Source: Shewanella sp. (GTDB lineage: Bacteria > Pseudomonadota > Gammaproteobacteria > Enterobacterales > Shewanellaceae). From it: a stretch of 64,000 nucleotides of DNA. This document shows, one piece after another, positions 156 through 61,803 of this stretch. How positions within the stretch are numbered: the stretch's first letter is position 1; the number at the start of each line of letters is the position of its first letter. Below the pieces are notes generated by a model, which saw only the letters and a program-made list of their open reading frames with translations, had not been told where the DNA came from and searched no databases. The DNA lies in NCBI RefSeq assembly GCF_013214165.1, contig NZ_JABSSM010000023.1:3609-67608 (forward strand). The letters are read 5' to 3'. The translations under genes and the position numbers were made by a program.

Positions 156-1411
156 CGTAGCGCCTCCTTATGCTGAGTGATCATTCTCAAAAAATGTAAC
201 CGTTCTTCCTCACCTAGCATCACTGCCTGCTTACCCATAACCGTTTTATACGTGCTTGCAAACCAACTGGATATCTCATTGACCAAAGTATCTAGCCATT
301 CATCCGTGTTTTCACGTTCTTCGATAAACTCATGGTGTAACCATATTTTTTGCACGCGAGTCAGTTGTGATATCTCGCTGTTATATTGCAACTCAGAAAT
401 ACTGCGAATTGCCCACATTTTGGCAATGATTTTGTCCATCACTTCGTGAATACGCGCATCGCGACTATTACGTAATTTTTTATTGTTTTTATAATCAATT
501 TTAAAGATGCGGTGCAGCGCTTGAAACACATCCTTATATTCATAAGGTCGAAACGATTCGCTAAAAAAATTACTACGTGGAAAATGAATGGTGCGTTTTT
601 CTATTTGTGGTGGTAGTGATGACAACAGATGTGCTTTACCCCCATTTTGATTATTCAGCACGCTGATATTTTGTGGTTTAGTGCCGCCATAACCAATCGT
701 GGTTAAACCATATATTTCTGCAAAACCCTGCTCACTAAATTCATTCTTTTTCCTTAATTCTCTTAGTACTTTAACCTCGTCATTAAAACGTAAATTATCG
801 ATACGCTTTCGCAGCTGATATAACATGCCCGAATTGGTTAATAGGGAAAGCTGGTGATAGTCCTCTGCAACAGGAAAATACACTTGTTTTATTTTAGAGC
901 TGGTAACATTTTCACTGCCACTTTCCGCCATCGCGACAAAACCTGCTTTTAACTCCGTATAAGAGACTTCTTTTAGCGTCAATAACTGCGCGGCCAGTTG
1001 TGAATCATTTTGAATATGTGTGAGCAGTTGCTGGCCATCGGTCATTTCTAAGGTTAAAAATTTATACACATCCAGTGCCGCAGCGTTACCCAATGCATCG
1101 GTATCAACAACCACATTACCGCTGCGTAAAAAACCATCTATCGCACTGTCTGCGTTGGCGATAACCGAACTAACGTAGCCATTTTTATTTTTTCGAGCAC
1201 TCGGATGACTAAACGTACAGGGGTGCGTCGCCATTGAGATCTGACCCGCTCTTTTCGCCGCGTTGGGCAGCCAAGTTGATAACGAGAATACCGCTTCACA
1301 TTGTTGTTGTGTTTCTCGAATTTGAGCTTCATCCATCGAAGCCTTTAGATTTTTCTTTAACCACGCTTCTTTTCGTTCTTCAAAGAAACGGGTGATAGCA
1401 GGATCTAACAT
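152..1411 (-). CDS. csy1: Type I-F Csy1 (Cas8f)
   Basis: 419 aa; motifs ATHPCTFSHP, DALGNAAALDVYKFL, SSKIKQVYFPV, GGTKPQNIS; sits between cas2-3 and csy2. Confidence 0.95.
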   Translation of the reverse strand: MLDPAITRFFEERKEAWLKKNLKASMDEAQIRETQQQCEAVFSLSTWLPNAAKRAGQISMATHPCTFSHPSARKNKNGYVSSVIANADSAIDGFLRSGNVVVDTDALGNAAALDVYKFLTLEMTDGQQLLTHIQNDSQLAAQLLTLKEVSYTELKAGFVAMAESGSENVTSSKIKQVYFPVAEDYHQLSLLTNSGMLYQLRKRIDNLRFNDEVKVLRELRKKNEFSEQGFAEIYGLTTIGYGGTKPQNISVLNNQNGGKAHLLSSLPPQIEKRTIHFPRSNFFSESFRPYEYKDVFQALHRIFKIDYKNNKKLRNSRDARIHEVMDKIIAKMWAIRSISELQYNSEISQLTRVQKIWLHHEFIEERENTDEWLDTLVNEISSWFASTYKTVMGKQAVMLGEEERLHFLRMITQHKEALR

Positions 1412-4400
1412 TGCTCTCTCCCTATTTTCACTAATCCAAATTGATCACTGTACTCGTACTTCTCACCGTCTCTGACAACAAAACTTAATTCGCCATAACG
1501 CAGTGATACTTGCCGTCTTGTTGGTAGTACGTCTGCGTCAATGTGTGCATCTAATACATCAAGGTAATCGCGTACTAGCCATAAATTATTTCGTTCACTT
1601 GTCGATAAACTCACCGGCGTTATTTGCCATATGTTGTCGACATTGATTAAATTACCCGCGATATCTGTTATACGTAAACCTTGCTCGTCTTTCTCGGTAA
1701 AATAACAATCTTCATCATTGCTATTTGCCACTAAAAATATTTTACTACTGGGCTCACTTTGCCTAAACGAATGCAGCAGTTGTGGCATTGCCGTTAAAAA
1801 CCACGTTGAATCAAGGTAGCCTTGCAGTGCTTGTGGGCCGAGCTGGGTATATTGAGTCAGTAATGCACCTATAGCGCGATGTTCAATACCCGCTAAATGC
1901 TGGCCTTGTGATTGATCTAATTGAGTAATGCGAGGAATCGCATTGATGCCGTTTTCAAGCGCTGCCAGGTTGACAATTTTACTCAGATCATGGGTTGGCA
2001 TTGGCTTAGTTTCATAGCCTGGTCGGGTAAAATAAACACCGCCTTGTTTGTCGCCTGCTATATATGCTTGGTAGTTATATTGCATTAAGCCAATATTAGC
2101 TTGAGTCACTTCGCCTTCGCGATGACGACGAACCCGCCCTGCTAATTGCACAATAGAGCGATAAGACGACGGTTCAACTACTGCCCAGTCAAAGTCATGA
2201 TCTCGCCCAACTTCCTCTACTGGGGTGGCAACCAGAATAAAAATAATCTGCTTGGCGTTACTGTTATCAAGGTGACCACGAATAATGGCATTGCTGAACG
2301 CCTTTGGCGCTTCGCCGGCCTTTTCTTTGCGCTTTAACACTTGGTCAAGGTGCTGTTCTTGTTCATGACGCAGTAACAAAACCTGCTGGCTATGATATGC
2401 CATGACCTTGACTTCGGTATCCGCTGGAAATTCAGCACTCAACAAGTAGCGAGTTAACTCAACACAAGGAGAAATATTGGCAACCCGGACAACACCAAAT
2501 GACACCTGTTTATTTGTCAGTTCGTCAACGGTATGGTGGTGTTGATGTTTCACTAACACCGCGTCTTTAATATGCTGAAAATAAGTCTCTTGCTTGCTTA
2601 TTCCATCTGTCGATTTAGTGTTAACCCTGTTGACTTCGCACGCCACAATATGGCCTTTACGTTTCGCGGTTTGATTGGTTAGCAACTTGATACGTTTATC
2701 AATAAAGGCATCGTGGAACGATTTATATTGCGCTATGGCGGGTTCACTATCACTAGATTTGACAGTTTCAACCTGAGTATACGACTCGTCAATCCAAGCA
2801 CAGCCTATAATGGCCTGTGACTCGGTACGTGATAGGCAATATAACTGCCAGCCTTTTTTGTAGGCATTAAAATAGCCTTCAGCCAAGCTTGGGGGAATGG
2901 TGGCAGAAGATATCATCACCTTACGCCCCAGCATGCCAGCAAGGTGAATAAGTCGCCCGATGGCAATTAAATCTGAACCGGTAAAATCATCAATTTCATC
3001 AATCACCAGATCAGACGACATCAAGCGTAATGACGGTAAAATATAACGACCACCGCGTTTGGTTTCTGTTGCCGCCATGATGTGATCAATCGTGCAAGCT
3101 AAAACGGGGGCATAAAGAAACTGCTTATCTTTATTTTTAGTCAGCACTGTCGTTAGGCCACTTTCAGGAATATCACAGTCATAATCAATAAACTCATCCA
3201 GTAACGACTCTGCCGATTCAGAACCCACGGCTTCCGCTGTCAATTCTTCCTCTGCTGCTACACGCTTATTATGTAAATCAGCCACCGCTTTAGACCCAAT
3301 TAACACGGCCAGTTGGCTTTTATCCAATCCGATACGTTGTCGATATTCATCGCCAGTCTGCAAGGTCAATGTGCGTAACCCAAGCGCTAAAATATAGCGC
3401 AAACTTTGCTGATCTACCGATAATGCTCGCATCACTTTGGCGTTAGCGAAGGTTTTACCACAGCCCGTACTCGCCATATTGACCGCAAAAAAACCAAACG
3501 CTTGCTTGGACTGCTGTTGGCGCCACTCCGTTATACTTTCTACCGCTTTATCTTGCCAACGAAATGCTTTAGGACTTGGCTTTCTTAACGCTTGAATATC
3601 TTGGGCTAACGGTGGTTCAGACTCAAAGGCAGGTAATAGATGCGCGGTATCCAGTGCCACTTTAGCGACGCCCACCAAGTGCTCATCTAATTTCTGCTTT
3701 AACTGATTAGTGTCTCGGTCGGTATTAGCAAATAAACCTGTGGTATCTTGCCAACCTTTGGCAGCATCTTGAGATGAATAGTTATGATCACCTAACATCA
3801 AACACAAACGCGCATGATGTAATACTAAACGATAGCTGCCGTCGGCGATCGCCTCTTTAATTAGTGGTAATTGATGTTGTAATTGGGTCGCCCTGCGTTT
3901 AACTAACTTATTCCATTGTGGAGACTGGGTTAATAAACCTTTGGGGAATTCAAAGCATTGTTTAACCCGGGCTTGATATTCAACTTCATCTTGGCGATTT
4001 TCATAGCCCCATTCTTGACTAATCTCACCCAGCAAATCGTCTATTCGCGGAAAGTCTTCTCCGAGATATTTGTTTCTTACTGCTTTTTTATCCCAAGAAT
4101 ACAAGGGTAATCTATGGTGCGAGACGAGCAACCAAGCGATGAGTTTGGCAGCATCTGGCAGTCCTTGCAGTGGTTTGCTGATGTTTTCACTCGAGACGGC
4201 TTTAATTCGCTGTTCGTCCAACTCGCCCATAATAAGCACTTTGAGCCAGTCTTCATCGCCAGCATCACTCGAACGAACCAGTGCATTAAGCAATAAACAA
4301 GATATCCATTCGTGTCGGATCGGATCACCTTTACATTTACTTTTACTGTCTGGGTTGAGCTTATTTTGAAACAGTCGCGATGCCTTGCCCCAATCATGTA

Positions 4401-4764
4401 ACAGCGCGGCAAGTCCGGTGAGCGATTTTATTAATGGCAGATACTTCCAATCATTTTCTATTTCCATGTTTAACAAGTTTCGCTTGGTAGTATTCACTGG
4501 CACCACTCCTTCACCATTAAACTTACTCTTATTGCCCACCACCCATATAAACTGACTGCGAGCGCGTGAGCGGATCCAATGGCAGCTCACCGCGGTACTT
4601 TTACTGGCAGTTTGTCGCAGCATCTTTTTTACCGCCTGCAAGCCGTCTTCAGTGATAATGGTTTGCCAGGTATTGTCACCGATGCGATTGGCAAAGGCGT
4701 CTAACACCCGCCGGGTTTTCTTTAAGGCGTTTTTCTCGCACATTGACACGAATGTAACCATCAT
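1405..4764 (-). CDS. cas3: Type I-F Cas2-3 fusion (Cas2 domain + HD nuclease + SF2 helicase)
   Basis: N-terminal Cas2-like MVTFVSMCEKNALKKTRRVLD; HD motif LLHDWGK; Walker A ASTGCGKT; DEID box; ATPVEEVGRDHDFD. Confidence 0.97.
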   Translation of the reverse strand: MMVTFVSMCEKNALKKTRRVLDAFANRIGDNTWQTIITEDGLQAVKKMLRQTASKSTAVSCHWIRSRARSQFIWVVGNKSKFNGEGVVPVNTTKRNLLNMEIENDWKYLPLIKSLTGLAALLHDWGKASRLFQNKLNPDSKSKCKGDPIRHEWISCLLLNALVRSSDAGDEDWLKVLIMGELDEQRIKAVSSENISKPLQGLPDAAKLIAWLLVSHHRLPLYSWDKKAVRNKYLGEDFPRIDDLLGEISQEWGYENRQDEVEYQARVKQCFEFPKGLLTQSPQWNKLVKRRATQLQHQLPLIKEAIADGSYRLVLHHARLCLMLGDHNYSSQDAAKGWQDTTGLFANTDRDTNQLKQKLDEHLVGVAKVALDTAHLLPAFESEPPLAQDIQALRKPSPKAFRWQDKAVESITEWRQQQSKQAFGFFAVNMASTGCGKTFANAKVMRALSVDQQSLRYILALGLRTLTLQTGDEYRQRIGLDKSQLAVLIGSKAVADLHNKRVAAEEELTAEAVGSESAESLLDEFIDYDCDIPESGLTTVLTKNKDKQFLYAPVLACTIDHIMAATETKRGGRYILPSLRLMSSDLVIDEIDDFTGSDLIAIGRLIHLAGMLGRKVMISSATIPPSLAEGYFNAYKKGWQLYCLSRTESQAIIGCAWIDESYTQVETVKSSDSEPAIAQYKSFHDAFIDKRIKLLTNQTAKRKGHIVACEVNRVNTKSTDGISKQETYFQHIKDAVLVKHQHHHTVDELTNKQVSFGVVRVANISPCVELTRYLLSAEFPADTEVKVMAYHSQQVLLLRHEQEQHLDQVLKRKEKAGEAPKAFSNAIIRGHLDNSNAKQIIFILVATPVEEVGRDHDFDWAVVEPSSYRSIVQLAGRVRRHREGEVTQANIGLMQYNYQAYIAGDKQGGVYFTRPGYETKPMPTHDLSKIVNLAALENGINAIPRITQLDQSQGQHLAGIEHRAIGALLTQYTQLGPQALQGYLDSTWFLTAMPQLLHSFRQSEPSSKIFLVANSNDEDCYFTEKDEQGLRITDIAGNLINVDNIWQITPVSLSTSERNNLWLVRDYLDVLDAHIDADVLPTRRQVSLRYGELSFVVRDGEKYEYSDQFGLVKIGREQC

Positions 4765-4780
4765 CAGATTTAACCTACCT

Positions 4781-4948
4781 TCATTCGTTATCCAAAAAGT
4801 TTTTTATCGCTATGCTTAACTTAACCATGAATATTAGTAATTCCCCACTCCTATGCCAAGACATACGGCACCGACACTTATCAATACATCTTCTTATTTT
4901 TATTATTAAATTAAGCATCACCCTGTACACAGCACATACTATTTTCAT
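4781..4948 (-). CDS. Putative 55-aa small ORF upstream of cas2-3 (candidate toxin or leader ORF)
   Basis: GAGAGG (4963-4958) 9 nt before ATG at 4948; MKIVCAVYRVMLNLIIKIRRCIDKCRCRMSWHRSGELLIFMVKLSIAIKNFLDNE; its TGA abuts the cas2-3 RBS; no recognised family. Confidence 0.4.
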   Translation of the reverse strand: MKIVCAVYRVMLNLIIKIRRCIDKCRCRMSWHRSGELLIFMVKLSIAIKNFLDNE

Positions 4949-4995
4949 TATAAGAAGCCTCTCATCCATTAAAGAGAGCACAGCTTACCCTACCC

Positions 4996-5024
4996 GATCT
5001 AACCGATCAACCTATGTATGTCAA
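4996..5024 (-). promoter_or_regulatory. Candidate sigma70 promoter for small ORF + cas2-3/csy operon
   Basis: Perfect TTGACA at 5024-5019; imperfect -10 at 17-nt (TAGATC) or 16-nt (TTAGAT) spacing. Confidence 0.55.
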
Positions 5025-5033
5025 AAATAAAAC
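5011..5033 (+). promoter_or_regulatory. PAM + protospacer matched by the mini-array spacer
   Basis: CC (5011-5012) then TATGTATGTCAAAAATAAAAC versus spacer TATGTATGTCAAAAATATAAA; first 17 nt identical, 19/21 overall. Confidence 0.9.
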
Positions 5034-5051
5034 TGTGACTTATGAAAGATA

Positions 5052-5080
5052 GTGACGCTAACCTATCAATCCAATATAAT
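5052..5080 (+). promoter_or_regulatory. sigma70 promoter of the mini-array
   Basis: GTGACG (5052-5057), N17, perfect TATAAT (5075-5080); predicted TSS about 5085-5087. Confidence 0.75.
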
Positions 5081-5081
5081 G

Positions 5082-5158
5082 ACCAGCTGCCGCACAGGCA
5101 GCTTAGAAATATGTATGTCAAAAATATAAAGTACACTGCCGAGCAGGCAGCCTAACAG
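5082..5158 (+). CRISPR. Mini-array (pseudo-repeat / 21-nt spacer / pseudo-repeat), antisense to cas genes; CreA/CreR-like regulatory crRNA
   Basis: R1 accagCTGCCGCACAGGCAGCTTAGAAA (last 23 nt identical to array repeat); spacer 5110-5130; R2 GTACACTGCCGAGCAGGCAGcctaacag (5-bp stem intact), overlapping the cas1 stop. Confidence 0.9.
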
Positions 5159-6168
5159 CCAGCAACATTATTGCTGGCTGTTTTTTCATTAAGGGCAATG
5201 TTTTTTACCGTCTCAAACATAAAATCGAGCGCTTTATGATCGGTAAATGCTTGCAGTACTTGCTGCCTAAACTCTTGTTCGGTGAGCTTTTCTTTAGCGC
5301 AAATAAAAGCCCAAGGTAAGACGATGGCATCTTTAATCAAATCGGCAATATCAAACACCAAGGCTCCCCTTCTGGTCTTGCCGTGCATCACGGCAAAACC
5401 GTGGGGTATGCCTAATACCCATAGGGTGGTTGCCGCTAACCCATAAGCGAGATAATTACCATGATTGAGAAAGTCGTTGGCCTTGTCGGTAGACTGATGC
5501 TGACGGGTAAAGTCTGACGTGTTAGTCACATTGGCGGCAAATTTGTAGAGCTGCTTGGTGAGCTGCGCTTCGGTTAACAAGAGATCTGACGGCTTAGCGG
5601 CGGTGATCATGCGTTGATCAAAACGCTGTAATGCAGCTTCAATATTGCTATCGCTAGTCGTAAAACCTGCTAATTTAAGATCCCTGTCTTTACCCCAAAC
5701 ATGATGTAAAAATTCAATCCGTGCTTGTTGAAATTGTTTGGCGGCATCGAGTCGTTTATTGTCATCAAACCAAAAACCCATCCAACCTTGTAAGTATTCC
5801 GTAGGGCGATATTCACTTTGTGGGGTAAACCATTCAATGGCATTGCCCATGTATAACGGTGTGCCTCCGCCACCAGAAAAACCAATCAATACGCCGGCTT
5901 GTGCCAACATTCTTACCGCAGCTTGGGTGATCGACGTACCATTGCCCAGTAACAGAACCGTGGTATTGGCAATGGGAATATTGAAGTATTGGTTTTCTTT
6001 CTTTGCCTCTGTCAGATACAACACCCGACCGTCTTTTTGCATCACTCGGCAATATTCGAGGTAATAGATGTTGGCACGCTTAGAGTGCAGTATCGCTTTG
6101 AGATCTGATGATGAAAAGTTATCCAATTTATCGGCCCGTATTATATTGTTGGGTGAGTAAGGTGCCAC
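5152..6168 (-). CDS. cas1: Type I-F Cas1
   Basis: DLKAILHSKRANIYYLEYCRV, NIPIANTT, HGKTRRGALVFDIADLIKD motifs; true start probably TTG at 6126 (MDNFSSSDLK) by analogy with I-F Cas1 N-termini. Confidence 0.97.
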   Translation of the reverse strand: MAPYSPNNIIRADKLDNFSSSDLKAILHSKRANIYYLEYCRVMQKDGRVLYLTEAKKENQYFNIPIANTTVLLLGNGTSITQAAVRMLAQAGVLIGFSGGGGTPLYMGNAIEWFTPQSEYRPTEYLQGWMGFWFDDNKRLDAAKQFQQARIEFLHHVWGKDRDLKLAGFTTSDSNIEAALQRFDQRMITAAKPSDLLLTEAQLTKQLYKFAANVTNTSDFTRQHQSTDKANDFLNHGNYLAYGLAATTLWVLGIPHGFAVMHGKTRRGALVFDIADLIKDAIVLPWAFICAKEKLTEQEFRQQVLQAFTDHKALDFMFETVKNIALNEKTASNNVAGC

Positions 6169-6258: not shown

Positions 6259-7086
6259 TTAATGGTTTAAAAGCCACTTTTTGATGTCATCTTGGTTGAC
6301 TAGAATTAATTGTTGGGCCTCTGGCGTGCCGTCTAACATTTTGGTATTGACCTGCAACTCCCGCAGCAAATAACTGGCCAGTGCGGCGCGGGTGTTAATA
6401 ATGAGTTGGCCGCCTTCCATTTGATAGTCATGGGCTAGTACTGCTTTTTTTGCAGGGGATAAGCGTGGATCTGGCTGTAAAATAAGTGGGATGTAGGTTT
6501 GCCAGTCACGATCTAAGCTGGCGTCTTGGTAAGGCCCATCTACAATGTCTGCCACGCCTCTGAAGCGGCTTAATACTAGGTCACGGTATTGTTGTGATTT
6601 TTCGCAATAACCTCTTACATGCCAACGTAATCCTGTATTGACGAATGTATGAGGATGAAAAATACGCCCATCACTCTCTGGATTAGACAGGGAAATATAA
6701 TTAGTTTCCATTCGTTTACGTTGCCGAATCGCTTTTACCAGTACCCTGATAACGTCGACTGAGACTCTGCGGGTGGGCAGGGCAAGATGGCTGACGTTAG
6801 CGGTAATGGGAGAGTGTTCATGAATTTGCTTTGTGTCAAACCACTGAAGATATTGATTAATGTCTGATGACATATAGTGTGCGATAAATGTTTTACTGGG
6901 CTTAAAACCATGGCTGGTTTGAATTAAGTTATCAGGAAACTGTTCATTGTAACGTTTAAAGTCTTGATAAGCCTGTTGGCGACTGATAGCAAATTGTTCA
7001 GTGAGTTGTTTATTCGTTACAGTGCCTTCCCACCATGCGACTAGTTCAATGAACAGTTTCCTCTGTTGTAAATTATTTGTAGCCAT
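6259..7086 (-). CDS. wHTH-WYL transcriptional regulator, CapW-like
   Basis: N-terminal IELVAWWEG...FAISRQQAYQDF (wHTH); WYL core FHPHTFVNTGLRWHVRGYCEKSQQYRDLVLSRF; C-terminal PDPRLS...DYQM...TRAAL dimerisation-type segment. Confidence 0.85.
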   Translation of the reverse strand: MATNNLQQRKLFIELVAWWEGTVTNKQLTEQFAISRQQAYQDFKRYNEQFPDNLIQTSHGFKPSKTFIAHYMSSDINQYLQWFDTKQIHEHSPITANVSHLALPTRRVSVDVIRVLVKAIRQRKRMETNYISLSNPESDGRIFHPHTFVNTGLRWHVRGYCEKSQQYRDLVLSRFRGVADIVDGPYQDASLDRDWQTYIPLILQPDPRLSPAKKAVLAHDYQMEGGQLIINTRAALASYLLRELQVNTKMLDGTPEAQQLILVNQDDIKKWLLNH

Positions 7087-7297: not shown

Positions 7298-8646
7298 TTT
7301 CTAAGCTAGCTGCGCAGCAGTGAACCGGCCGGTGCTGTTATCTAATCCTCATGTGATTTTCTAAGCTGCCTGTGCGGCAGTGAACGTATAACGTTATCGG
7401 GTCCAGGTTCCTCGAGTTTTCTAATCTGCCTGTGCGGCAGTGAACCGTAGGAGGGGCTTCAGCCCCGATGCATATAGATTTCTAAGCTGCCTGTGCGGCA
7501 GTGAACGTACCAAACAAATTTACGCTAGTCGCTAGGCTTTTCTAAGCTGCCTGTGCGGCAGTGAACACCAAACTAAACCTACAACGGCCCAGCTCGCATT
7601 TCTAAGCTGCCTGTGCGGCAGTGAACTGCTTCGCGACGCGCTGTTATGAACACCGCCGTTTCTAAGCTGCCTGTGCGGCAGTGAACCGGGTAACACTAGA
7701 AACTTTAGACTCGGTGATTTTCTAAGCTGCCTGTGCGGCAGTGAACTGAATATCGATACTCAGGCCATATTTTTGGATTTTCTAAGCTGCCTGTGCGGCA
7801 GTGAACATTATTAACGTTAAGCTCTAGGTTTTCGACTCTTTCTAAGCTGCCTGTGCGGCAGTGAACGCGGACGCTTTGCAGTGCGCATATACGCTGGATT
7901 TCTAAGCTGCCTGTGCGGCAGTGAACCGGATACTGTTCTCGAGTATTACAAAATCGACTTTCTAAGCTGCCTGTGCGGCAGTGAACCCCAGAGTCGGTGA
8001 AAGCAAAATTTTCTGGATTTTCTAAGCTGCCTGTGCGGCAGTGAACCAAGGCGGCGCACTGGTTGTTGTTGTTCGGGTTTTCTAAGCTGCCTGTGCGGCA
8101 GTGAACTGCTAGCAATTCGGCGGCGCTGTTGTCTTCTGTTTCTAAGCTGCCTGTGCGGCAGTGAATGCAGAGGCTAGACGCATAGAAGACGCTCGACTTT
8201 TCTAAGCTGCCTGTGCGGCAGTGAACCCTACAGAGTTTCTAATAGAGTCGATGCGTGATTTCTAAGCTGCCTGTGCGGCAGTGAACTAATCAGCTAACGA
8301 TAACCTCACAAGTTGAAATTTCTAAGCTGCCTGTGCGGCAGTGAACGAGATCAAAGAGTTCAATATGTTTGTCGGCACTTTCTAAGCTGCCTGTGCGGCA
8401 GTGAACGCCTATCCTCAACACTCACCCACTCGCTTTGTTTTCTAAGCTGCCTGTGCGGCAGTGAACAGGGGCGGCAGGGGCGCACGATGATGTGTACATT
8501 TCTAAGCTGCCTGTGCGGCAGTGAACAGTGTGAAGAAAAATACTTAACTTATGCTGCTTTTCTAAGCTGCCTGTGCGGCAGTGAACTAGGTGTGACATCG
8601 GTTAAATCTGCTGTGAGCTTTCTAAGCTGCCTGTGCGGCAGTGAAC
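7298..8646 (-). CRISPR. Type I-F CRISPR array, 23 repeats / 22 spacers
   Basis: 28-nt repeat GTTCACTGCCGCACAGGCAGCTTAGAAA (minus); 32-nt spacers (one of 33); degenerate terminal repeat at 7298-7325 (4 mismatches) and single-base variants at 7418 and 8139; leader on the right. Confidence 0.99.
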
Positions 8647-9559: not shown

Positions 9560-9587
9560 ATTCTAAGCTGCCTGCGCGGCGGTGAAC
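9560..9587 (-). CRISPR. Orphan type I-F repeat
   Basis: GTTCACCGCCGCGCAGGCAGCTTAGAAT, 25/28 identical to array repeat, 914 bp from the array; no second repeat at +/-60 bp. Confidence 0.85.
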
Positions 9588-36838: not shown

Positions 36839-37075
36839 TTATTGGCGGGTATAAATCTGTAGAATGAGGGTCTTGTTATTGCCTTTAAGCCACTAAGCCT
36901 TTAAAAACTGTAAAAGCCATGACAAATCAGCATAAGCATTATTGGCGGGTATAGATCTGTAGAATGAAGGTCTTGTTATTGCCACTAAGCCTTTAAAAAC
37001 TGTAAAAGCCATGACAAATCAGCATAAGCATTATTGGCGGGTATAGATCTGTAGGATAGGTGTCTTGTTATTGCC
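36839..37075 (-). repeat. Three diverged copies of the last 45 nt of the 37031 gene with a shared 47-nt linker
   Basis: Copies at 36839-36883, 36939-36983, 37031-37075; periods 100 and 92 bp. Confidence 0.95.
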
Positions 37076-37462
37076 AAATGAGAGTGTCATTGAGATGCTT
37101 TCTCCTCGTTTAAACTTCTGCTTATAGGTAAGGGGAGAGAGACGTCCGCCATCTCCCATGAGTGCCATAAGCTGATCACTTTTAAAAATTCGGCTACCCG
37201 ATGATTGATTTTCCAGGGTCACCACGGCGCGACGATCGCCTTTTTCATTACTCATCAAGATGTAATTGACCACAATAAAGTCACTAATTTTCGGCTGTAT
37301 ATCACCATCATTGGTGAAATTAAGCTCAACATCATTAGAGACGATTCTGTCGACACTAAAAACATCACTCAGCTCGTTTTCGTCTGGCTTGTTAGCGGAA
37401 AAACTACTAAAACTGATCAAGGAGGTGACCAATAATAGGCTTGTGGTTAATTGACGGTTCAA
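37031..37462 (-). CDS. Secreted hypothetical protein, 143 aa
   Basis: Signal peptide; no family recognised. Confidence 0.8.
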   Translation of the reverse strand: MNRQLTTSLLLVTSLISFSSFSANKPDENELSDVFSVDRIVSNDVELNFTNDGDIQPKISDFIVVNYILMSNEKGDRRAVVTLENQSSGSRIFKSDQLMALMGDGGRLSPLTYKQKFKRGESISMTLSFGNNKTPILQIYTRQ

Positions 37463-37564
37463 AAGAACCTCCTGTTTTGAATAATTTCTTGTTCAGGTGC
37501 TAGCCATCGCCAAGTTTCTCTTAACCCTAGGATGACAAACACAGGCACTAACACTTACTTAAGG

Positions 37565-44720: not shown

Positions 44721-46382
44721 ATGAAAGATTCTTTTTTTCGCTCAATGACCTGGCTCCATACCTGGGTCGGCCTACTCGTTTGCTGGATACTGCTCGTCGT
44801 CTTTTTTGCTGGCAGCATGAGTTATTTCCGTCACGAGATATCATTGTGGACCAAACCTGAATTACATTCTGGTACATTCCAACATTATCAAGCTAATGAG
44901 CTTGGCAAACAGTTAGCGTCGGCACAGACATTCTTACACGAACAGACCGATAATGCTCAGGACTGGCGTATCTACCTGCCAACTGAGCGCAGACCTTATC
45001 TTAGCTATGGCTGGCAAGATCAACCTGAAGCCGGACAGCGCCGCGGTAAGTTTCATAAAATGGTCGTTAAAGCAGATAGTGGCGAGATGCTCAGTGAAGT
45101 ACGGGAATCTAAAGGCGGTAATTTTTTCTACCGATTACACTTCGACCTGCATTATATACCGGCCCATTTTGCCCGTTGGATAGTGGGATTTTGCACCATG
45201 TTTATGTTGGTCGCCTTAATCAGCGGTATAGTGATCCACAAACGAATATTTAAAGACTTCTTCAGTTTCAGACCTAATAAGGGCAGCCGCTCCTGGCTTG
45301 ATGCCCACAATGTCAGCTCTGTGATGGCACTGCCCTACCACCTGATGATCACCTATACGGGCCTCATCACCTTGATGTTTATGTACATGCCTTGGGCGGT
45401 AGTCACTAATTACGACGGTGATAACCGGGCCTTTCGCGCTGAGTTAGCCCCATCTAAGGTACAAACAAAGCCCAGTGGCCAAGATGCTAATCTTATTTCT
45501 GCGGCTAGCTTATTGCCACAAGTAACGCGTCATTGGGGAGACGCCCCGATTAAACGAGTGATCATTGCTGCGCCACATGACAGCAATAGCCGTATCAGCT
45601 TCTATCGCAACAGTGAACAAGAGGTCACCGACAAACCTACTCAAATTGTATTTAGCGGCGTGACAGGTGAGCTAATAACCATGTCACCTTCGGAAGAGTC
45701 TGCGACTCATGCGACTTACGACACCTTAATGTCATTGCATACGGCGCGTTTTGCAGGCGCTATTTTACGTGGGTTCTTCTTTATCTGCGGTCTGATGGGC
45801 TGCGTCATGATAGCTAGCGGCGCACTGCTTTGGGCGGTAAAGATACGCCAGAAGCAACAGAAGCAGCTAAGTAAGGGCAAGACTGCGAGTCTTGGTCTGC
45901 GATTGGTAGAAGGGCTGAATCTGACGTTTATTGCAGGCTTGCCCTTAGCGACATCGGTTTTTTTCTACGCCAATCGTATGCTGCCGCTCGAGTTACAAGG
46001 TAGGGCACAATGGGAAGCCGATTGCTTCTTTATCACCTTAGGCTTAGTCGGGTTATTAGCCTGCCTTAATCGCAGCCTAAGCACTTGGCGACTGGTTTTG
46101 AGCCTTGGGGGACTAGGGTTAATTTCTCTACCTCTAGTCAACGCCTTAACTTCTCCGAGCCATATTATCGATAATATTGTCAGTGGACAGTGGGCCTTGG
46201 TGGGTTTCGATCTCTTATCTAGCTTGTTAGGCTTAGGTTTATTATTAACAGTCAAAAAGCTCAGTGCTTCGAGTCAACCTAAGTCTGCAGTCATCAATAA
46301 AAATACGGCGACCGGGTCTCGGCGACAAAACTTAGCGGGTGAAAATCCCCTTACGGCTAAAATGAAGGAAGAAGCCCTATGA
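44721..46382 (+). CDS. PepSY-associated TM helix domain protein
   Basis: SMTWLHTWVGL, FYRLHFDLHY, WLDAHNV, LHTARFA. Confidence 0.92.
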   Translation: MKDSFFRSMTWLHTWVGLLVCWILLVVFFAGSMSYFRHEISLWTKPELHSGTFQHYQANELGKQLASAQTFLHEQTDNAQDWRIYLPTERRPYLSYGWQDQPEAGQRRGKFHKMVVKADSGEMLSEVRESKGGNFFYRLHFDLHYIPAHFARWIVGFCTMFMLVALISGIVIHKRIFKDFFSFRPNKGSRSWLDAHNVSSVMALPYHLMITYTGLITLMFMYMPWAVVTNYDGDNRAFRAELAPSKVQTKPSGQDANLISAASLLPQVTRHWGDAPIKRVIIAAPHDSNSRISFYRNSEQEVTDKPTQIVFSGVTGELITMSPSEESATHATYDTLMSLHTARFAGAILRGFFFICGLMGCVMIASGALLWAVKIRQKQQKQLSKGKTASLGLRLVEGLNLTFIAGLPLATSVFFYANRMLPLELQGRAQWEADCFFITLGLVGLLACLNRSLSTWRLVLSLGGLGLISLPLVNALTSPSHIIDNIVSGQWALVGFDLLSSLLGLGLLLTVKKLSASSQPKSAVINKNTATGSRRQNLAGENPLTAKMKEEAL

Positions 46383-61670: not shown

Positions 61671-61803
61671 TAGTAGGAGAACAAATTTTTAGCCATTGAC
61701 TATGGCTGGCACCATTAATACTCATAGTAGGAGAACAAATTTTTAGCCATTGACTATGGCTGGCACCATTAATACTCCTCGCTGGCACCATTAATACTCC
61801 CTC
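61671..61803. repeat. Nested tandem duplications at upstream end of Y1 transposase element
   Basis: 53-bp unit at 61671-61723 and 61725-61777 (contains hairpin AGCCAT-TGACT-ATGGCT), plus 22-23-bp GCTGGCACCATTAATACTCC(C)TC duplicated at 61759-61803. Confidence 0.92.

Follow-up and report, generated by a model that had tools for sequence, protein, structure and literature searches.

The two-repeat mini-array at positions 5082-5158 (+ strand) of the window, by which we mean the whole 64-kb stretch of marine sediment metagenome DNA analysed here, is probably a gene for a crRNA-like regulatory RNA of the CreR/CreA class, encoded by a degenerate mini-CRISPR within a type I-F1 cas locus; we would place the probability of this reading at about 60%. 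The most likely output of such a gene is CreR-type autorepression of the cas2-3-csy operon. Two repeat-like units enclose one spacer-like sequence, inside the cas locus and apart from its array, and the enclosed guide has a PAM-flanked match nearby, located at a promoter-like site (the activity of which is predicted) and covering a stretch too short for cleavage to be expected.

[quoted passage not shown] Its main array (7298..8646, reading from 8646 to 7298, with an Rfam match) comprises 23 copies of the repeat GTTCACTGCCGCACAGGCAGCTTAGAAA and 22 spacers. The effector and adaptation genes recognised with Pfam are cas1 (5152..6168, - strand; Cas_Cas1, 95% identity to the Cas1 of Shewanella benthica KT99), cas2-3 (1405-4764, - strand) and csy1/cas8f (152-1411, - strand), and csy2 and csy3 come next, past the window's left end, where these genes were read on an identical metagenome contig (L081). 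The csy1 and cas2-3 genes share a 7-nt overlap, which argues for a single operon downstream of the guide's target, such that cas2-3 and csy1-4 can all be served by one promoter ahead of cas2-3. The mini-array itself lies in the 387-bp gap between cas1 and cas2-3, 2.1 kb from the main array and on the opposite strand.

The anatomy of the mini-array can be read directly. A promoter-like site at 5052..5080 (+ strand; GTGACG-17 nt-TATAAT, 10/12 in a consensus scan and a prediction only) would place the start of transcription near 5086-5088, at the base of the first hairpin. The first repeat-like unit, psiR1 (ACCAGCTGCCGCACAGGCAGCTTAGAAA, 5082-5109, + strand), differs from the array repeat in its first 5 nt and scores 32.4 bits (E 1.9e-4) against CRISPR-DR4, the Rfam model of the I-F repeat, and the second, psiR2 (GTACACTGCCGAGCAGGCAGCCTAACAG, 5131-5158, + strand), scores 20.8 bits (E 0.73); both fall below the model's gathering score of 35 bits, and both are degenerate repeats. 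Each has kept the Cas6f hairpin (CTGCC-GCACA-GGCAG in psiR1, with the stem extended to 7 bp, and CTGCC-GAGCA-GGCAG in psiR2), and both CTGCC/GGCAG stems, of the kind recognised by Cas6f/Csy4, are present in the predicted minimum-energy fold. The lengthened stem of psiR1 could affect cleavage by Cas6f. The 8-nt 5' handle of psiR1, CTTAGAAA (5102-5109), is identical to that of the array repeat, whereas the same part of psiR2, past the cleavage point, has decayed to CCTAACAG, and as such no guide would be made downstream of it. In type I-F systems Cas6f cleaves after repeat position 20, and the predicted mature RNA extends from 5102 to 5150, a total of 49 nt made up of the 8-nt handle, the 21-nt guide psiS (TATGTATGTCAAAAATATAAA, 5110-5130, + strand) and a 20-nt hairpin. 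An intrinsic terminator (5154..5188, + strand; a 12-bp stem and then a T run) follows, and the stretch from 5078 to 5195 folds as three hairpins with a z-score of -5.05 relative to shuffles. Equipped with a promoter and a terminator of its own, both of them consensus matches only, the mini-array has the appearance of a stand-alone small RNA gene.

The target of the guide lies 97 nt upstream of psiS at 5011..5033 (+ strand), and consists of a CC PAM (5011-5012) and the protospacer 5013-5033 (TATGTATGTCAAAAATAAAAC), just as the original prediction had placed it. Guide and protospacer are matched at 19/21 positions, with mismatches at positions 18 and 21, and the crRNA-like RNA would pair with the - strand of the target. 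[quoted passage not shown] The 17-mer common to guide and target has no third copy in the 64 kb (0.02 expected by chance), and two copies were found in none of 100 shuffles. A search of the window for other targets of the guide returned one seed-only match, at 37543 and 9/21 overall, which we take as chance.

A candidate promoter directed toward cas2-3 was read from the sequence immediately beside this target (4982..5010, - strand), with a -35 box TTGATC (5010->5005), a 17-nt spacing and a -10 box TAAGCT (4987->4982). On the - strand the -35 box comes straight after the complement of the PAM, and an alternative -35 box that is a perfect hexamer, TTGACA (5024->5019), falls within the protospacer itself. 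Some features of this region count against simple autorepression. The candidate promoter is weak, falling under the cut-off of our promoter scan, and is separated from the cas2-3 start by a leader of about 210 nt (4765..4981, - strand), in which a second promoter-like site of better match (TTGGCA-17-TAATAT, 4859->4831) is situated past the target, 150 nt downstream and beyond the reach of a target-bound complex.

The length of the guide is the feature on which the original prediction was built, and its premise is exact, as psiS measures 21 nt and the spacers of the main array 32 nt (21/22) or 33 nt (1/22). In I-F1 systems spacer length relates to the number of Cas7f subunits by L = 6N-4, with spacers of 20-21 nt giving four Cas7f (Tuminauskaite et al. 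2020, PMC7296934), and when normal spacers are cut by 6, 12 or 18 nt the complexes bind the target and form R-loops, yet never trigger Cas2/3 in vitro and provide no interference in vivo (PMC7296934). The truncated-spacer Cascade of Aggregatibacter actinomycetemcomitans offers a likeness to the window's unit, in that its 20-nt (-12) spacer yields four Cas7f and a complex that binds without triggering Cas2/3 (PMC7296934); unlike that laboratory construct, the gene in the window and its self-target are both natural. By cryo-EM, guides of 32, 26 and 21 nt correspond to six, five and four Csy3, respectively (bioRxiv 10.1101/2024.10.29.618823). The suggestion that a complex two Cas7f subunits shorter would bind without recruiting Cas2-3 is supported, insofar as it matches experiments on homologous I-F1 systems. 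The broader statement that shortened type I guides bind DNA and support cleavage poorly holds for I-F1 (PMC7296934) and is too broad for type I as a whole, given that interference and priming persist in I-E with spacers above 20 nt (PMC5159557), and the safety conferred by length is therefore specific to I-F. Furthermore, a short guide as a block on self-cleavage is not new, and has already been published for related systems: the I-F1 mini-arrays described by Shmakov et al. (2023, bioRxiv 10.1101/2023.03.03.530964) have spacers under the normal length that pair fully over a shorter stretch, and those authors read such short-spacer features as adaptations against self-cleavage.

These same data bear on whether psiS might be an active self-targeting spacer that leads to autoimmunity or to primed spacer uptake. 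A near-perfect match beside a correct PAM is what such a spacer would have, and in I-E it would be long enough to function (PMC5159557); in I-F1, however, a truncation of 6 nt already abolishes Cas2/3 cleavage and interference (PMC7296934). The locus is moreover intact, and none of the 22 array spacers matches the window with up to 6 mismatches allowed, so that there is no trace of priming from the self-target. We consider active self-targeting to be extremely improbable. The fully paired short guide is, in any case, a good natural substrate for testing the R-loop length checkpoint of I-F1.

Related loci provide context for the regulatory reading. A Cas1-based scan, taking one genome per species, yielded 80 I-F loci with Cas1 identities of 75-95%, the closest being that of Shewanella benthica KT99. 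A repeat unit in the cas1/cas2-3 gap was found in 0/80 of these loci, which have small genes or REP-like repeats there instead, and mini-arrays were found in the cas2-3/csy1 gap of 8/80. The layout of these eight is held in common with the window. All eight point away from csy1 and have a terminator at the end, and the CC-flanked target of each lies upstream of psiS at a distance of 76-107 nt, against 97 nt in the window. A -35-like hexamer (mostly TTGAxx) begins 0-2 nt past the PAM complement in six of the relatives according to the scan; in one further locus (L044) and at the window's own site the hexamer fits by eye and is below the scan cut-off, and in the last (L043) it is unclear.

The eight relatives' guides are 20, 20, 25, 19, 27, 20, 15 and 19 nt in length, and short psiS elements are usual in I-F CreA, CreR and Cracr RNAs. 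As such, the proposal that the window displays a distinct and unrecognised short-guide design does not survive the comparison. All nine guide lengths (window and relatives) fall within 1 nt of 14, 20 or 26, the values given by 6N-4, a fit that evenly spread lengths would show half the time each and that has a probability of about 0.002 in this small sample; a published 30-nt case from A. baylyi is off the pattern. At 21 nt, the window's guide is 1 nt longer than the 20 nt that N = 4 gives, the spacer length of a four-Cas7f Csy complex. Pairing follows a pattern as well. Positions 6 and 12 are mismatched in 13/16 cases among the relatives, compared with about 5% at the other positions from 1 to 17, and position 18 is also mismatched; this is the periodicity of the bases flipped out by Cas7f, a sign that Csy-mediated pairing is under selection. 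The two relatives whose guides measure 25 and 27 nt pair regularly up to about position 17 and only sparsely beyond it; what these loci have in common is therefore a short R-loop, which can result either from a short guide or from mismatches at the distal end. The contrast originally drawn between a short guide and partial complementarity thus loses its force. The window differs from its relatives in that positions 6 and 12 are still matched, which suggests that the guide-target pair is young and would fit a recent duplication that selection has yet to test.

The gaps of these loci hold other contents that deserve mention in their own right. An ORF of 63-74 aa lies between the target promoter and csy1 in Pseudoalteromonas byunsanensis (L053, 10631-10843), Pseudoalteromonas sp. 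MSK9-3 (L080, 10664-10888) and Endozoicomonas sp. G2_1 (L065, 10721-10912); two of the three start MDKRYVITET and the third starts MMNKKYVKEETFT, no Pfam or PHROG match was obtained for any of them, and all three are candidates for CRISPR-repressed proteins, be they toxins or regulators. In an Oceanospirillum MAG the cas2-3/csy1 gap is occupied by a 133-aa ORF without a Pfam match (L027, 10376-10777), with no mini-array there. The cas1/cas2-3 junction is a cargo hot spot in other marine I-F loci, as judged from gap sequences by eye (L013/L017, L022, L045, L033 and L050), and its cargo includes toxin-antitoxin-like small gene pairs, among them a PIN/VapC-like pair in L022 and L045, as well as other ORFs of 200-330 aa and clusters of REP-like repeats (L006, L014, L068 and L078).

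We infer the following course of events for the regulatory RNA. Transcription would proceed rightward from the mini-array's own promoter and be ended by its own terminator, and Cas6f would cleave both hairpins to release a 49-nt RNA consisting of CUUAGAAA, the 21-nt guide and the 20-nt hairpin. This RNA would assemble a shortened Csy complex with four Cas7f rather than six, which in turn would bind the CC-flanked sequence at 5013-5033 and form an R-loop of about 20 bp adjoining the -35 box of the leftward promoter. Since the fused cas2-3-csy1-4 operon is most likely transcribed from that promoter, the effector would repress production of both itself and its nuclease, in a manner comparable to the autorepression described for CreR. 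I-F1 Cascade is expected to trigger Cas2/3 at the normal 32-bp R-loop only, and the self-target would hence be bound and left uncut.

A precedent for such behavior is the mini-array of P. aeruginosa YL84, for which promoter repression requires Cascade and does not require Cas3, and for which no plasmid interference is observed (bioRxiv 10.1101/2023.03.03.530964). The window's unit is like this mini-array and the CreR RNAs (bioRxiv 10.1101/2023.03.03.530964; concept in 10.1101/2023.03.10.532045) in having two degenerate repeats, a short spacer and transcription away from the regulated cas genes, in the position of its CC-PAM target at an effector-gene promoter, and in a spacer-type pairing over a shorter stretch. 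Known I-F cases are found in the cas2-3/csy1 gap and regulate csy only, whereas the window's unit is found in the cas1/cas2-3 gap, upstream of the fused cas2-3-csy operon and about 250 nt from the start codon; the matched positions 6 and 12 set it apart from CreR and YL84 as well. With a regulator upstream of cas2-3, the nuclease gene itself would fall under the autoregulatory loop. Particular to this locus are a module sited ahead of cas2-3, the polymorphic presence of that module in the population and the recent-looking guide-target pair. Neither the placement at cas2-3 nor the full pairing of the short guide is more than a minor variation, and both leave the current understanding of these RNAs unchanged. 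A more distant likeness exists to the I-B CreA of Haloarcula hispanica, where a crRNA-like RNA likewise makes the effector a repressor of a nearby promoter; that RNA reportedly depends on a short seed-proximal match, whereas nearly the whole of the short guide pairs in the window's unit.

It could also be argued that the module is a CreTA rather than a CreR, with the RNA serving as an antitoxin (CreA) that silences a toxin gene within 4765-4981, such that the loss or inhibition of Csy would kill or arrest the cell. The unit certainly shares much with the I-F CreA RNAs of CreTA and CrePA, for which our comparison set comprised Acinetobacter WCHA45 (PMC10097628), A. baylyi ADP1 (10.1101/2024.01.05.574328) and P. 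aeruginosa (10.64898/2026.06.02.729485): the order psiR1-psiS-psiR2, a CUAAGAAA-type psiR1 handle and both hairpins, along with the general properties of CreA modules, namely a target just upstream of a divergent promoter and a presence in some strains only. The divergent layout, in which a promoter directly follows the target, is specifically that of the P. aeruginosa CreTA, and the P. aeruginosa psiS elements measure 20 nt in CreA1 and 26 nt in CreA2 (bioRxiv 10.64898/2026.06.02.729485). The 387-bp gap exceeds the 221-255 bp of those relatives without an ORF between target and csy1, and approaches the roughly 400 bp of the Acinetobacter CreTA regions (PMC10097628), for which reason a toxin was sought in the leader of about 210 nt. 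A 55-aa ORF is present there with a GAGG motif 9 nt ahead of its ATG, and L053, L065 and L080 also have an ORF (63-74 aa) between the regulated promoter and csy1.

The contents of the leader do not bear this out. Among 5.8 billion proteins the 55/66-aa ORF has no homologue, and it has no Pfam or PHROG match; its codon-usage score of -0.275, compared with 0.235 +/- 0.107 for the genes of the window, is unlike that of any 55-codon window of local genes, and the ORF is probably non-coding. A small protein toxin was rejected on these three grounds (homologues, family match and codon usage), and a structured leader RNA was rejected because the fold of the leader (z -0.57) is not above that of shuffles. 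A rare-codon CreT, which would sequester tRNA by means of the run AUA AUA AAA AUA AGA AGA in the leader ORF, was rejected since AGA accounts for 16% of Arg codons and ATA for 24% of Ile codons, neither being rare in this genome. Unlike CreTA and CrePA, the leader has no recognisable toxin, in that it contains no conserved protein and no unit of Shine-Dalgarno, mini-ORF and hairpin like those of known CreT RNAs; nor were paired proline codons seen. No toxin gene was thus found within the leader, downstream of the target, and we regard a CreTA as rather unlikely.

The module varies within the population from which the window derives. The only runs found to contain the window's sequence are DNA runs from marine sediment metagenomes. 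The variable segment, 4741..5212, takes in the whole module together with 8 codons at the start of cas2-3 and 20 at the end of cas1. In two other runs, X5 (78x) and X6 (34x), the dominant contigs have 78 other bases in place of 4741-5212, and the module-bearing allele is a minority in at least one sample (3.6x vs 78x). The Cas1 allele that goes with these contigs (P0002) agrees fully with that of the window as far as ...DFMFE, after which it terminates in QVKKVALQGNDKTEGQSQ, and its stop overlaps the start of cas2-3; cas1 and cas2-3 are likewise without a gap in S. benthica KT99. In the allele carried by the window, the final 12 codons of cas1 (5152-5188) are read from the strand opposite the mini-array terminator and psiR2, and the insertion has consequently replaced the Cas1 C-terminus QGNDKTEGQSQ with a new tail, NEKTASNNVAGC. 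As the variable segment spans the ends of both genes, the module was gained or lost by segment replacement. With module-plus and module-minus alleles in one sediment population, and cas1 otherwise identical, the cost and benefit of the circuit could be studied.

Searches for homologues of the module by blastn gave repeat-hairpin matches only in plasmids and no match in phages; one metagenome scan with the handle and seed gave 22 matches and 0 repeat units, and two viral scans gave nothing. The donor lineage was not found by way of Cas1 proteins with the same ETVKNIAL tail. Of the contigs that carry them, Motilimonas sp. E26 has a 108-aa ORF at the corresponding place, and the other (L108) stops at the cas1 stop.

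It is conceivable, in light of these observations, that the module is a functionless by-product of recent recombination, in which the pair of repeats and the duplicated 17-mer came with an imported segment and have no selected role (yet). The presence/absence polymorphism between otherwise identical cas1 genes would agree with this, as would the failure to find a homologue in the related loci or the metagenome scan and the lack of drift at the free positions 6 and 12. Against it stand too many independent and intact parts (promoter, terminator, exact handle, both hairpins, PAM, and a target beside a -35-like box), and a distance and orientation that agree with eight independent loci. We judge a by-product to be quite unlikely.

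The arrival of the module by replacement of a DNA segment could, alternatively, indicate the capture of an anti-CRISPR RNA, that is, a Cracr (Cas-repressing RNA) of a mobile element that shuts down the host's cas2-3 and csy genes and is not a host-adapted regulator. The median length of I-F psiS elements is 25 nt for bacterial and 19 nt for viral ones, and at 21 nt the window's guide is within the viral range (17-21 nt) and below the typical bacterial one (23-27 nt) (bioRxiv 10.1101/2024.10.29.618823). The guide length and the predicted 49-nt mature RNA are furthermore those of CracrIF2, in which a 21-nt psiS gives a 49-nt RNA and, by cryo-EM in P. aeruginosa, a complex with mainly four Csy3 that is resistant to AcrIF24 (bioRxiv 10.1101/2024.10.29.618823). 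CracrIF2 is encoded by a phage beside acrIF24, whereas the window's unit is within a chromosomal cas locus, has no copy among the phage records and viral contigs searched, and has cas and chromosomal housekeeping genes as neighbours, with mobile-element genes absent nearby. The host mini-arrays of the relatives are mostly 19-20 nt too, as is the CreA1 of P. aeruginosa (20 nt), which means that guide length cannot separate host from virus in this clade. A captured viral RNA is accordingly a very doubtful account of this locus.

The regulatory RNA could have a wider reach than a single locus if the module were a portable cassette that spreads between I-F loci, or it could differ in kind if the 210-nt leader held a new sort of CreT RNA toxin; we regard this pair of possibilities as rather unlikely. 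Were the cassette real, its parts would be the cas1 3' end, the short-guide regulator, the promoter targeted by it and the cas2-3 5' end, and it would be moved by homologous replacement, putting cas2-3, and not just csy, under autorepression by the effector. Its four-Cas7f complex would keep the circuit running even when AcrIF24 or another Acr protein that attaches to the Cas7f backbone is present.

Last, several features elsewhere in the window were noted. Directly upstream of cas1, with the array on its other side, is a gene for a WYL/BrxR-like transcription regulator (6259-7086, - strand; WHD_BrxR, WYL and BrxR_CTD domains), and the same pairing with cas1 is seen again in Motilimonas sp. 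E26 (L107, 4125-4997) and on a gut-metagenome contig (L108, 508-1359); the gene may provide a second, protein-based regulatory layer for the I-F locus. A solitary repeat-like unit, GTTCACCGCCGCGCAGGCAGCTTAGAAT, is found at 9560-9587 (- strand), about 910 bp past the leader end of the array and adjoining pyrI. It scores 34.5 bits against CRISPR-DR4, just under the threshold, has one mispaired stem position, and may be followed some 23 nt on by a very degenerate second unit; no convincing PAM-flanked target for it was found within the window, where the best match is 14/23 at 45080. It could be what is left of an earlier array boundary, or else another unit with a regulatory function. Two intergenic tandem duplications of two copies each lie far from the CRISPR locus, at 36889-37076 (92 bp, 95%) and 61671-61800 (54 bp, 100%).
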